A stretch of DNA of 62,925 nt, filler included, from Reclinomonas americana ATCC 50394 (GCA_048213135.1; 4 parts of 3 records of this genome joined end to end with filler, not necessarily neighbours in it); one strand, 5' to 3'; counted from the first letter of the whole stretch, positions 5,556-13,675 are shown. Notes: generated from the letters alone by a model not told the origin. Program-made: numbers and translations.

Positions 5556-8500
5556 CAATGTGTACGCGTGCCCTTGAGATGAGCCGCAATCTTCTTGGTG
5601 CTGACCATCCGCAATCGCTGGACGTTGCTGCAAGTCTTGGGGAGGCACTATGCAAGATTGGTCGGGACGGGGAGGCCATTGATGTGTTACGCGACACGGT
5701 GCAGCGTCAGAAACAGATGTTGCCAGAGAGTAGCACGGAGACAATGGTCGCAATGACCTGCCTCGCCCAGGCTCTTCACAACACCGGTGACAGCAAGGCT
5801 GCAGTGGACATTGGACGCGAGTTGCTTCTACGACGTCGCAAATTCTGCGGTGACGATGACAACAACACAGTCGAAAGCGCCTACCACCTCAGCGAGCATC
5901 TTCTTGCCGTCGGCGGCAAGCGCAATTTTGCGGAGGCCTTTAATTTGCTTACTGATACGCGCGAGCGGTGGACTCGGCTGCTTGGTTCTGACGCACGGAG
6001 CACACTTGCTGCGTCGTTCAGACTTGGGCACGCCCTGCGGCGACTCGGTCGACCTCAGGAAGCCGTTGAAGCGCAGTGTGATACACTGGAGCGGCTGAAA
6101 CGGTTGCCTGTACCGGATAAGAGTCTCGAGGTGGCGGTTATGGTCGATCTTGCATATGGCTATGCGGAGTGCGAGAATTACGTAGCGGCAGTTCGAGTCG
6201 GTCGAGAACTAATCCCTCTTGAACGACAGCAGCTTGGCGATGACAGCCCAGTCACGGTGAACAGTATTCGGACCTATGCGGCCAGTCTCGCGGCTGTTGG
6301 CGGGGTCGCGAACATCAAAGAAGCGGAGCGCCTAATGGTAGAAATCATGAGCAAGCGGGACCGATTGTCTGGTCCTGAATTTGGTGCAAAGGAAGACGAT
6401 GAAAAGCTTATGTTTGTAATCCGTGTCGCACTTGAAGGAGTGCCGCGCGGTGAAGAAGAGGGGACAGAGACTAGCAAGAAGAAGCAGGACTCTTCTGCAG
6501 GTGAGTTTGTGCCTTGTCTCCTCCGGTCACCGCCTTCTCTTACTCACTTGCTTCGTGTGCTTTCGGACGCAGCAGTGCCTGTCGACGCCACTCATTCGTC
6601 CTCTCGATCATCGGTTTCGTTGCTGATCACGCAGGCCTCTCTTTCATGTGACATGACCACTTACAAGGCATGCGTCCCCGCAGGCATCTGGAGCATCTCC
6701 CCCTCCCGTCGTCGCCTCCTCTTCATCTCGCACACCAGCCGAGAAGGTTGACCCCGTCGGTGGAAATGGACAAGCTCTGCCCCAGCCTGATGCGCTGCAG
6801 CAAGATCTGGAGGAACAGCGGCAGCGGACAGCCGAGTGGCAGGCGCGTTTGCAGCACCACGAACAGACCGCTGCTCAGCTGCGACAGGAAGTTGAGGCAG
6901 CGCAGCGTGGAAAGGAGGCATGGCGGCAGCGGACAAGCGAGTGGCAGGAGCATGTGCGGCAGCAGGAGGAAACTGTGCAGCGGGTGCAACAGCAGATGGC
7001 GGGACTGCAGCGACAACTGGACGAGCAGCAAGCGCAGATGAGCGAGTGGCAGCGGCGTGTGAAGCAGCAGGAAGCGACCATCGCGGAGCATGCTGCCTCG
7101 CTCCAACAGCACGAAACTGCGCGTACCGCGCTGCAGGAGGCGCTGGATCGTGTGGACGAGCAGCGACAGCGCGAGCATGACCGAGCACAACGACTCGAGG
7201 CTGATTTGGCTGCCGTGCAGCGCGATCTCACCCACCGAGGTGCGTGCGTCAGCAGGAGGTGAAAGGGGAAGTGTGATGATGATTGGAGACTAACATTGTT
7301 TGATGATGATGAATGCAGCGCCGTTGACGGCATTCTCGTGGGAGCAAGTGGTGTCAATGAGCAACAATTTTGCGGAGCGACTGGGAGGTGATGGTGGACA
7401 GGGCAAGGTGTTCTGCGGTCAGTGGGCCGGACAGAGTGTGGCCATCAAGGTGTTTGACAGTGCGCTGCCGTGGTGTATTGAGTCGTTCTCCAATGAGGTG
7501 AGGGTGGTGGATGGGAGAAGGATGATAGAAGGAGGTTGTTTTCTTCTCATTCTCTTTCTGCTTGCATCGCAGTTGGAGAAGCTCAAGGCGGTGAGTGTGG
7601 CTGGTGTTGTACCGCTGATTGGGTTTGCGGAGTCGGACGACGGCAAGCGATGTGTGGTGCTTGAGGCAATGAGGTGCGTGTGAGGAGAAGAGGGCGAGCA
7701 GAGATGTAAGTTACGCAAGCGGGTTGAACAAGACTTAATGAGAGAGCATGAGGCAGGACGTCAGTGCTGGATGCAGTTTTTTTGTCTTTCCGTCTGGCTT
7801 GGTTGATGATCACCACCACGCCTCTTTGTCGTTCCCGAGAGAGGATGGGAGGTGTCATCTGTTCATGTGCACTCACTCCTTCGTGATTCACAGTGAGCAC
7901 AACTTGGAGCACCGACTGCTGCAGTGGGCGGAGCGCGGACTGCCGTCCATGTCGATTGAGGCACGCATGACGTGCATGCTGCGATGTGCCGAGGCTGTTG
8001 CTTCGCTGCACAAGTTGCGTGTCACATGCCTCGTTGTCTGTTGTTGGCTCTCCATTTCTTTGGACTCACTTTGCTGATGATGCAGGCATGTGAGTGAGAG
8101 AGATCATGCGTGTTGTCTGTGTGCGTTTGCTTCATTCTTCTCTTTATTGACTCACTCGTGCCTTTCTGTGCGCTTTTCGACATTCGCAGAATGGTACGTG
8201 TGTCTGTTCTCCGTCCTCTGCTCATTTTTCTTCCACTCACTCACTTTCTCTCTCTCCCTCTCTCAGTGATCCATCGCGACCTGAAGCCAGCCAACATTCT
8301 GTTCAACCACAGTGGAATGGCCTACATCGCGGACCTGGGAGTGGCACACTGGTTCCGCACCGAGGGGGTGAGTGACACTTTCCTGTTCTGTCACTCCCTT
8401 CCCCTTTCCTCCCCTCATCCCTTCCCTCTCCTTCTTCGTGCCACAGACGCACTTGTCTGTTCACTTTGCTGGCGACCCAAAGTACGCCGACCCCAAGGCC

Positions 8501-9082
8501 ATGCACGGCCAGCTGCGACTGAGTTCGGATGTGTTCTCGCTTGGTCTCGTTCTACTGCAAGTGTTCAGCGGTCTGCCAATCGAGGAGGTGCATCGGCGAG
8601 TGGAGGCACTGGAGGAGATGGACGATGTGGGTGGCGAATCACTGCTCAAAGCCGCTGTGGATCTGGCCGACGGTGGCGCAGGTCGACCGTGGCCGGCTCC
8701 TGTGTGTGAGAGGATTGTGCGATTGGCACTAAGGTACCTTGTGTGTTTCCAAGAGAGCGTTGCGAGGAAACGCGCTGACTGACCAATCTGCAGATGCCTG
8801 GATGGCCGCCCAGCACGCCGTCCAACAGCGCAGCAGCTGGCGAGCGAGTTGAGCGACCTGACGGTGCTGTCGTGCCGACGGGCGTGCATGGTGTGCGACG
8901 GACTGCGCGAGACGCGACTGCGTCCATGCATGCATCAAGTGTTGTGTCGGGAGTGCGCGGAGCGGCTGGTGAGCAAGAGTGGCGAATGTCCAGTGTGTCG
9001 CGTGCGAGTGGAGGGTGTGGATGCGGGCGAAGGATACGGGTTCCACACGTATGTGGGTCTCCCGGCGCCGTTGCGGCGGTGA
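5556..9082 (+). CDS. TPR - coiled coil - RLK/Pelle-like kinase - RING protein, copy 2 (5' end in gap)
   Basis: TPR exon to 6500 (LLGADHPQSL, QLGDDSPVT); coiled-coil exon about 6684-7239; kinase motifs GGDGGQGKVF, VAIK, FSNE, HRDLKPANIL, DLG, GDPKYADPK, SDVFSLG; C3HC4 RING CMVC...PCMH...CREC...CPVC; stop at 9082. The model includes 4-nt exons 8086-8089 and 8190-8193. Confidence 0.9.
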
Positions 9083-12400: not shown

Positions 12401-13675
12401 CACGCCTCTTTGTCTTTTCCGAGAGAGGGTGGGGGGGTGTCATCTGTTCATGTGCACTCACTCCTTCGTGATTCGCAGTGAGCACAACTTGGAGCACCGA
12501 CTGCTGCAGTGGGCGGAGCGCGGACTGCCGTCCATGTCGATTGAGGCACGCATGACGTGCATGCTGCGATGTGCCGAGGCTGTTGCTTTGCTGCACAAGT
12601 TGCGTGTCACATGCCTCGTTGTCTGTTGCGTTGTTCTCCATTTCTTTTCGACTCACGTTGCTGATGATGCAGGCATGTGAGTGAGAGATGTCATGCGTGT
12701 TGTCTGTGTGCGTTTGCTTCATTCTTCTCTTTATTGACTCACTCGTGCCTTTCTGTGCGCTTGTCGGGATGCACAGAATGGTACGTGTGTCTGTTCTCCG
12801 TCCTTTGCCCATTTTCTTCCACTCACTTTCTCTCTCCCTCTCTCTCAGTTATCCATCGCGACCTGAAGCCAGCCAACATTCTGTTCAATCACAGTGGAAT
12901 GGCCTACATCGCGGACCTGGGAGTGGCACACTGGTTCCGCACCGAGGGGGTGAGTGACACTTTCCTGTTCTGTCTCTCCCTTTCTCTTTCCTCCCCTCAT
13001 CCCTTCCCTCTCCTTCCCCTCCTCGTGCCACAGACGCATCTGTCAGTGCACTTTGCTGGCGACCCAAAGTACGCCGACCCCAAGGCCATGCACGGCCAGC
13101 TGCGACTGAGCTCGGATGTGTTCTCGCTCGGTCTCGTCCTCCTGCAAATGTTCAGCGGTCTGCCGATCGAGGAGGTGCATCGGCGAGTGGAGGCACTGGA
13201 GGAGATGGACGACATTGATGGCGTCGATGGCGAAGCACTGCTCGACGCCGCGGTGGATCTGGCCGACGGTGGCGCAGGTCGACCGTGGCCGGCTCCTGTG
13301 TGTGAGAGGATTGTGCGATTGGCACTGAGGTACCTTGTGTGTTTCCAAGAGAGCGTTGCGAGGAGACACGCTGACTGACCAATTTGTAGATGCCTGGATG
13401 GTCGTCCAGCACGCCGTCCAACAGCGCAACAGCTGGCAAGCGAGTTGAGTGACCTGACGGTGCTGTCGTGCCGACGGGCGTGCATGGTGTGCGACGGGCT
13501 GCGCGAGACGCGACTGCGTCCGTGCATGCACCAAGTGTTGTGTCGGGAGTGCGCGGAGCGGCTGGTGAGCAAGAACGGCGAATGTCCAGTGTGTCGCGTG
13601 CGAGTGGAGGGTGTGGATGCGGGCGAAGGATACGGTTTCCACACGTATGTGGGTCTCCCGGCGCCGCGGCGATGA
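9443..13675 (+). CDS. TPR - coiled coil - RLK/Pelle-like kinase - RING protein, copy 3 (complete)
   Basis: MDPDDSPRL... begins an intronless TPR exon 9443-11093, followed by the same exon chain as copy 2, including 4-nt exons 12673-12676 and 12777-12780. The RING exon ends at TGA 13675. Confidence 0.92.

Follow-up and report, generated by a model that had tools for sequence, protein, structure and literature searches.

IRAK, Pelle and RLK kinases act together with separate RING ubiquitin ligases (E3s), such as Pellino and TRAF6, and plants have comparable RLCK-PUB pairs. KEG is a plant RING-kinase protein, of a type with an N-terminal RING and WD40 or ankyrin repeats. In these plant proteins, to which the RING-kinase-WD40 type of PMC10286513 belongs, RING and kinase lie on one polypeptide. 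The NB-ARC-TPR proteins of Ectocarpus are proposed as pathogen receptors in PMC3341825, and part of PMC4053784 makes a similar point for Acanthamoeba. For duplicated genes under gene conversion, a section of PMC3924837 describes a peak of exon divergence beside introns of low divergence, with the red/green opsins as the example and the protocadherin clusters as a further case. Here we analyze a 62,925-base stretch of DNA from Reclinomonas americana ATCC 50394 (GCA_048213135.1; parts of the genome joined end to end with filler), called the window below. Performing self-blastn and tblastn with the copy-3 protein, we find that its first 14 kb hold three plus-strand paralogues, copies 1 to 3, with no fourth copy elsewhere in the window. 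The predicted protein runs from a KLC-type TPR solenoid through a low-complexity linker and a coiled coil to an IRAK/RLK-like Ser/Thr kinase and a C-terminal C3HC4 RING. We consider it likely that a 2.6-kb output module has repeatedly undergone gene conversion between the loci, which has kept a shared kinase-RING output behind differing TPR sensors.

Results

Divergence between copies 2 and 3 steps at the end of the TPR exon

We built an eight-exon model for copy 3, carried it over to copy 2, and delimited the part of the two genes that has been homogenized. All features listed here are on the plus strand.

9443-11093, 11326-11787, 11866-12044, 12121-12221, 12479-12603, 12849-12949, 13034-13329, 13390-13675, plus strand: copy 3, eight-exon model with GT-AG introns (3201 nt, 1066 amino acids)
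9443-11093, plus strand: copy 3 exon 1, TPR solenoid and K/E/Q-rich helical linker (gene model, Pfam, AlphaFold2, Foldseek)
11326-11787, plus strand: copy 3 exon 2, coiled-coil region (heptad-like Q/E/R-rich sequence)
11866-13329, plus strand: copy 3 exons 3-7, protein kinase domain (translation, Pfam Pkinase)
13390-13675, plus strand: copy 3 exon 8, kinase end, C-terminal C3HC4 RING and stop (Pfam zf-C3HC4_3, PDB RING matches)
11086-13707, plus strand: copy 3 homogenized tract, partner of copy 2 6493-9114 (blastn, breakpoints)
5558-6500, 6739-7239, 7319-7497, 7573-7673, 7894-8018, 8267-8367, 8447-8733, 8794-9082, plus strand: copy 2 exons, after the copy-3 model
5558-6500, plus strand: copy 2 exon 1, at least seven TPR units and a short linker (Pfam TPR_12 86.8 bits, TPR_10 70.6 bits)
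6493-9114, plus strand: copy 2 homogenized tract (last 8 nt of exon 1, introns 1-7, exons 2-8 and about 30 nt of 3′ flank)
10520-10567 (copy 3) and 6023-6070 (copy 2), plus strand: conserved island LGHALRRLGRPQEAVE in the TPR exon, 46 of 48 nt identical

Every splice site of copy 3 is kept in copy 2. The exon 6/7 junction is backed independently, since the gap in a BLASTP alignment to P0128, a database representative described below, covers exactly the residues that intron 6 would encode. The 5′ end of copy 2 is lost in the gap at 5332-5555, and its seven TPR units are a lower bound.

The two copies differ very unevenly along their length. In the TPR exon, 582 of 945 aligned nucleotides are identical (61.6%), giving 43% amino acid identity. 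In exons 2-8 the count is 1447 of 1529 (94.6%), and in introns 1-7 it is 871 of 987 (88.3%; 71.8%-94.9% per intron). The first-pass annotation of this DNA had called the copies almost identical from the coiled coil to the stop, introns included. The contrast with the TPR exon stands, and "almost identical" overstates identities of 88-95%. Its other readings of this comparison agree with ours: intron 5, which it had singled out (8014-8266 against 12599-12848), matches at 224 of 243 positions (92.2%), and the TPR exons can be aligned in spite of many amino acid differences and share short conserved islands, such as LGHALRRLGRPQEAVE, found in both copies.

Performing a maximum chi-square scan, the kind of breakpoint check that had been proposed, we find two breaks far above the permutations. 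The main one lies after 6492/11085, 8 nt upstream of the exon-1 donor, where mismatch falls from 38.6% to 7.9% (chi2 476; the highest of 1000 permutations reached 20.7). The second step, at 6983/11531 in exon 2 and beside a 51-nt indel, takes mismatch from 17.1% to 6.1% (chi2 59, against a permutation maximum of 23.9, again from 1000). Mismatches in the introns are likewise denser on the 5′ side, with 64 of 310 sites in introns 1-2 versus 52 of 677 in introns 3-7 (p = 1.7e-8). Indels of 51, 20, 15 and 9 nt separate the copies through the 3′ module, and blastn gives 87.8% identity over 2690 columns for the whole homogenized tract. Its 5′ limit falls at a purine-rich linker of variable length, with which exon 1 ends. 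On the 3′ side, from about 30 nt past the stop codon, identity drops to 46.9%, approximately the level of unrelated sequence. On both sides the tract ends inside DNA that is otherwise unalignable.

The TPR exons are several-fold older than the rest of the gene

We estimated synonymous (dS) and nonsynonymous (dN) divergence between copies 2 and 3 by the Nei-Gojobori method. The TPR exon (292 codons) gave dS 0.79 and dN 0.48, a dN/dS ratio (omega) of 0.60. Exons 3-8 (359 codons) gave dS 0.142 and dN 0.011 (omega 0.07), and exon 2 a dS of 0.20. In fast-changing codons dS may be inflated by the averaging of pathways, and we therefore counted four-fold degenerate sites in codons for identical residues only. 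Of these, 42 of 85 differ in the TPR exon (49%), compared with 32 of 257 in exons 2-8 (12.5%) and with 116 of 987 intron sites (11.8%; Fisher p 1e-11 and 1e-15, respectively). At neutral sites the TPR exon is thus 4-6 times more diverged than the 3′ exons and the introns. It follows that this exon is several times older than the rest of the gene, because the neutral sites themselves have diverged and selection on the protein cannot bring this about.

Copy 1 supplies a time scale. Against copies 2 and 3, its kinase exons 3-5 show dS 0.85 and its exon 8 dS 0.52-0.60. Between copies 2 and 3 the same exons give only 0.09 (exons 3-5) and 0.165 (exon 8). Across exons 3-5, copies 2 and 3 agree with each other and differ from copy 1 at 100 sites, and differ between themselves at 9. 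On these divergences, we date the TPR exons of copies 2 and 3 to about the time of the split from copy 1, and the output modules look young.

A sharp and significant shift in neutral-site divergence along an alignment of paralogues is one mark of interlocus gene conversion, and copies 2 and 3 show it. Gene conversion of the 3′ module, one of the processes that the first-pass annotation had offered, is strongly supported by the 4-6-fold excess at TPR neutral sites and by a tract ending in unalignable DNA. Such ends point to a patch of conversion more than to an unequal crossover, which would have carried flank along. The TPR exons are old (neutral divergence about 0.8) and the 2.6-kb tract is young (about 0.06-0.19), with at least two steps of divergence inside it. 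Since there are two age layers, conversion would have happened at least twice. It would halt at the purine-rich, length-variable linker on the 5′ side and just beyond the stop codon on the 3′ side, and the sensors may be kept distinct by selection against conversion of the TPR exon, or by too little homology there. The GC content at third codon positions, 0.69 in the converted exons versus 0.56-0.60 in those of the TPRs, would fit GC-biased conversion and proves nothing.

Within the TPR exon we also considered the 48-nt island LGHALRRLGRPQEAVE as a candidate micro-conversion. The window of residues 355-384 that holds it has a local dS of 0.25. It hints at such an event, but with P about 0.02 before correction the island is not significant after multiple testing, and we make no claim for it.

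Several points weigh against conversion of a shared output module. The 5′ boundary, 8 nt before the exon-1 donor, is very sharp, as a swap of the TPR exon would also leave it. Intron 2 is just 71.8% identical despite its position within the young stretch. Synonymous sites of the copy 1 TPR block are saturated (proportion of synonymous differences, pS, 0.73-0.75), so that the TPR tree cannot be rooted with copy 1, and phylogenetic incongruence is for this reason read from rates and not from trees. Two complete sequences and a partial third, taken from a single draft assembly, underlie the comparison, and the eight-exon models are predicted from sequence alone rather than from transcripts. Finally, the output kinase lacks the glutamate of the APE motif, which is replaced by ADPK in every copy that has the exon concerned.

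Alternatives to gene conversion

It may be that the whole gene was duplicated recently (dS about 0.1-0.2) and that one copy then received its TPR exon from a distant member of the family, through an exon or cassette swap or as an unequal-crossover chimera. Besides the sharp boundary, the varying length of the TPR block among copies and the length-variable, low-complexity linker at the junction speak for such a swap. It would predict two strata of divergence, and we find three. Similarity stops about 30 nt past the stop codon, without the common flank that an unequal crossover would leave. Nor does the window hold a donor TPR copy or nucleotide-level repeats, and the cassette exchange suggested by the first-pass annotation therefore finds no footing in it. 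The TPRs of copies 2 and 3 are also closer to each other (43% amino acid identity, pS 0.49) than either is to that of copy 1 (32-36%, pS 0.73-0.75), which fits divergence in place. We regard a swap as unlikely.

Could the array be an artefact, in which a pair of haplotypes, or else a repeat that was mis-joined or collapsed, stands in tandem? The scaffold is a draft with 23 N runs, the 5′ end of copy 2 lies in a gap, and copy 1 has its RING exon in reverse on a contig of 950 nt and lacks exons 6-7. The copies, however, differ by 5-12% and by several indels across the 3′ module. Their TPR exons share 43% of amino acids and their flanks cannot be aligned, whereas alleles would be collinear and near-identical. 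We judge an artefact very unlikely.

Diversifying (positive) selection acting alone on the TPR exon after a recent whole-gene duplication fares slightly worse. Constraint on the TPR exon is about 8 times weaker than on the kinase-RING part (omega 0.60 vs 0.07). Where the TPRs of copies 2 and 3 agree, it is mostly at the repeat positions that define the fold; most others differ, so that the variable positions fall outside these. No bias toward one helix was seen within the TPRs (helix A 42% identical, helix B 46%). In 18 sliding windows of 30 codons omega runs from 0.19 to 1.04, with two windows at about 1.0. These values do not amount to the dN/dS above 1 by which diversifying selection, as put forward in the first-pass annotation, was to be recognized in this sliding-window check. 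Overall omega in the TPR exon is significantly below 1 (Fisher p = 5e-4), and positive selection may persist at a minority of sites. As sole cause, selection is contradicted by the synonymous and four-fold TPR sites, which are 4-6 times more diverged than the introns and 3′ exons; the excess divergence reflects age (dS 0.79 vs 0.14). We give this explanation very little credence.

Targeted hypermutation, with a mutation rate raised locally in the TPR exon, would inflate dS and dN together, and both are indeed high up to a step that coincides with the exon end. No signature or mechanism of such mutation was seen, and the positions that define the fold have been conserved. The TPR dS of 0.79 equals the copy 1 kinase dS of 0.85, which ordinary age explains, and we find this idea hardly credible.

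The predicted protein joins TPR, coiled coil, kinase and RING

Exon 1 of copy 3 scores 119 bits with Pfam TPR_12 and 104.3 bits with TPR_10, far above the respective cut-offs of 30.1 and 27.5. These are exceeded by copies 1 and 2 as well, copy 1 reaching 92.2 bits for TPR_10 and 81.8 bits for TPR_12. In the AlphaFold2 model of copy 3 exon 1 (mean predicted local distance difference test score, pLDDT, 82.3), residues 3-474 form 22 helices, and a long linker helix comes after them. Foldseek related this predicted structure with probability 1.00 to the TPR domains of APPBP2, LGN/Pins, OGT and KLC, and the nearest solved TPR, by sequence and by structure, is a KLC-like repeat protein of Podospora anserina. 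The proteins of copies 2 and 3 are predicted to keep the solenoid and to show different surfaces. Since TPR lengths and surfaces differ among copies 1, 2 and 3, the three proteins probably recognize different partners. PADLOC matched none of the three TPR blocks. For exon 2, Pfam returned weak, sub-cut-off coiled-coil matches.

The kinase C-lobe piece of copy 3 matches Pfam Pkinase at 43.3 bits (cut-off 31.7), and the 59-residue N-lobe exon has no Pfam match by itself. Spliced, the kinase reads GDGGQG (GxGxxG), VAIK, HRDLKPAN (HRDLKPxN) and DLG. In the PDB the nearest solved kinase is IRAK4 (E 1.4e-10), followed by plant SymRK and BRI1. The C-lobe matches generic kinases in the ESM Atlas, including an S-receptor-like kinase cluster. 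The entry motif of the kinase, FS..E....NNF..LG.GG.G.V, is of the RLK type and aligns with that of P0128. We call the kinase IRAK/RLK-like on its nearest matches and its entry motif.

The C-terminal exon encodes a predicted RING E3. It scores 41 bits with zf-C3HC4_3 (cut-off 27) and has all eight zinc ligands in the order C-x2-C-x10-C-x-H-x3-C-x2-C-x10-C-x2-C. Pfam found no death domain in exons 1, 2 and 3, which sets the protein outside the IRAK family, and no NTPase of the NB-ARC/NACHT kind in any scanned exon, which sets it outside the NLR/STAND class. A TIR domain was likewise not detected by Pfam in the scanned exons.

How such a protein may work can be outlined from its parts. The TPR groove would bind a peptide or protein ligand, as the structural neighbors of the TPR bind peptides. 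The coiled coil would gather kinase domains for trans-activation, and the RING would then attach ubiquitin to the receptor or to a recruited substrate. One common output would in this manner be fed by different sensors.

Relatives of the locus proteins

Searches with the RING exon, the kinase C-lobe and the TPR exon turned up no protein that combines TPR, kinase and RING, within sets that sample eukaryotes to a limited extent. The RING exon, searched at longer lengths against a set of 5.8 billion proteins, gave 179 candidates, none significant, and no usable match in the ESM Atlas. The kinase C-lobe had 3055 matches among 1.84 billion representatives. We examined the best 150 of these, at the top of which stand multi-kinase proteins with summed scores. 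Pfam, run on 28 of these best 150 of 3055, found none with TPR plus RING. Screening the same best 150 with a hidden Markov model of the RING exon, a C3HC4 regular expression and phmmer with the copy-3 TPR gave two proteins with a RING and none with a TPR. The TPR exon, again at longer lengths, had 134 matches, and none of the best 120 has a RING family.

P0087 and P0128, both distant database representatives, carry an RLK/IRAK-like kinase followed by a terminal zf-C3HC4_3 RING. P0128 begins with a TIR domain above the Pfam cut-off and is thus a TIR-kinase-RING protein, and P0087 has an N-terminal hydrophobic segment before kinase and RING. Neither has a TPR or a coiled coil, unlike the locus proteins. 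For the kinase C-lobe, identity to the locus lies at just 32-45%, and for the RING at 24-34%. A common origin of the kinase-RING fusion would be one possible reading. Literature searches, mostly at the level of titles, returned no description of a TPR-coiled-coil-kinase-RING protein. The protein design appears to be new in the data searched, and the evolutionary process is well known.

Copy 1 and the surroundings of the array

Copy 1 (855-4104) is broken by three gaps, and its parts were recognized as follows.

855-1613, plus strand: copy 1 exon 1, short TPR block of 252 amino acids, with ATG at 855 and running into the gap 1614-2225 (open reading frame, translation, Pfam)
2226-3414, plus strand: copy 1 long Q/K/A-rich low-complexity linker and coiled-coil exon, with a gap at 2638-2881 inside (tblastn to the copy-3 coiled coil)
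3484-3659, 3731-3831, 3980-4104, plus strand: copy 1 kinase exons 3-5 (copy comparison)
5012-5297, minus strand: copy 1 last exon with kinase end, RING and stop (blastn minus-strand match, 84% to the RING exons of copies 2 and 3; translation)

The TPR block ends with a proline run. It is indeed shorter than in the other copies, as the first-pass annotation had it, at 252 amino acids from 855 to the gap at 1614 as assembled. The coiled-coil exon ends at 3414, where a GTACGT donor follows, and exons 6-7 are missing from the assembly. The contig at 4382-5331 (950 nt, between two N gaps) holds the last exon and 3′ flank of copy 1 on the minus strand, with the rest of the copy on the plus strand. 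A contig placed in the wrong orientation is a more probable cause than a true inversion. Long CAG-type or purine-rich low-complexity runs occupy 2226-3265, in the linker of copy 1, and 4469-4692, in its 3′ flank. They would read as poly-Q, poly-A or poly-S according to frame, and they match each other on opposite strands.

The window as a whole is a draft scaffold with GT-AG introns and many microsatellites and CAG-type low-complexity stretches, and an Rfam scan of it had no match. Directly downstream of copy 3, at 14900-16250, are two large gaps (603 and 646 N) with flanking GA/CT microsatellites. The low GC at 14-16 kb is probably due to the Ns and not to AT-rich DNA. An identical gap signature, two 44-N runs with 12 bases between them, occurs three times (29741-29840, 58841-58940 and 61296-61395) and has the pattern of an assembler artefact.

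The neighbors of the array are ordinary genes: DDHD, a second kinase, CwfJ, FAM210, Gcd10p, TYW2/TRM5, LMBR1 and an EGF-rich protein. For the DDHD-domain phospholipase gene (17681-19778, minus strand), the best database identities are just 27-44%, across animals, plants and protists, and the source organism appears to be poorly represented in the protein sets searched. The second protein-kinase exon (30793-31371, plus strand; Pkinase 67 bits) was not matched by the copy-3 protein at E 1e-3 and belongs to an unrelated kinase gene. An open frame at 41035-41751 (plus strand) consists of a 99-nt (33-residue) tandem repeat, 5.1 copies at 84% match, with a coiled-coil-like unit …QAQLSVTRAQMETVFERR…, and ends at a gap. 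Another tandem repeat, at 21230-21813, has a period of 116 nt and five copies at 90% match, and looks non-coding. The cysteine-rich open frame at 57553-58443 (minus strand) is built on a 135-nt repeat and matches EGF_2, teneurin-like EGF, DSL and laminin-EGF.

Discussion

At present the locus is chiefly a well-documented known process in a protein design for which no description was found. It would also be a clean, small case in which gene conversion has been partial and has stopped at the junction of two domains. Should the functional reading be true, a protist would couple variable repeat sensors to a fixed kinase-plus-ubiquitin-ligase output on a single chain, and this would be a further independent route to modular receptor families besides NLRs, RLKs and TRIMs.

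From the pattern of divergence, the first-pass annotation had supposed immune receptors. We infer that the TPR-kinase-RING proteins may have such a role, judging from domain content and gene arrangement: the kinase is of the IRAK/RLK type, the TPRs are of a type common to NB-ARC-TPR proteins, the genes form a tandem array, and there is a distant TIR-kinase-RING relative. Counted against this are the lack of an NTPase and of any omega above 1. More speculatively, and in our judgment improbably, the proteins may form an as yet undescribed kind of eukaryotic receptor in the cytosol. Such a receptor would be a "signalosome" on a single chain, whose TPR sensor binds peptides and, by way of the coiled coil, drives an IRAK-like kinase and a RING E3. 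Conversion would keep the output interchangeable, perhaps allowing mixed oligomers, and selection would keep the sensor exons apart. The same output would stand behind TIR elsewhere, as in P0128, giving an NLR-like logic of innate immunity without an NTPase.

Compared with the IRAK/Pelle/RLK systems, the locus likewise combines kinase and E3 outputs; IRAK4 is the nearest solved kinase, and the entry motif is RLK-type. Unlike the IRAK systems, it has no death domain and carries kinase and RING on one chain. The plant RING-kinase proteins differ in their N-terminal RING, in having WD40 or ankyrin repeats, and in having no TPR. Bacterial Ser/Thr kinase-TPR proteins, from Planctomycetes and others, also pair a kinase with TPR_10/12 and are numerous among the best 120 of the 134 TPR-exon matches. 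They are prokaryotic, 22-34% identical, and without a RING among those best 120.

NB-ARC-TPR proteins are among the best listed matches to the copy-3 TPR exon. Like the NB-ARC-TPR and NLR-like candidates of Ectocarpus, fungi and actinobacteria, the locus sets TPR_10/TPR_12 repeats as presumed variable sensor before a conserved signaling part. It differs from these candidates in having no NB-ARC or NACHT NTPase. Its TPR block is, moreover, one exon without near-identical internal repeats, and not an exon per repeat.

The human red/green opsins, as far as they are treated in the section of PMC3924837 on conversion, come close in process. There too, tandem paralogues are homogenized over most of the gene, introns included, and one exon is far more diverged than the introns beside it. 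Unlike in the opsins, the diverged part here is not a small internal peak; it is a whole sensor exon of 0.9-1.65 kb at one end of the tract, and the tract itself has two age layers.

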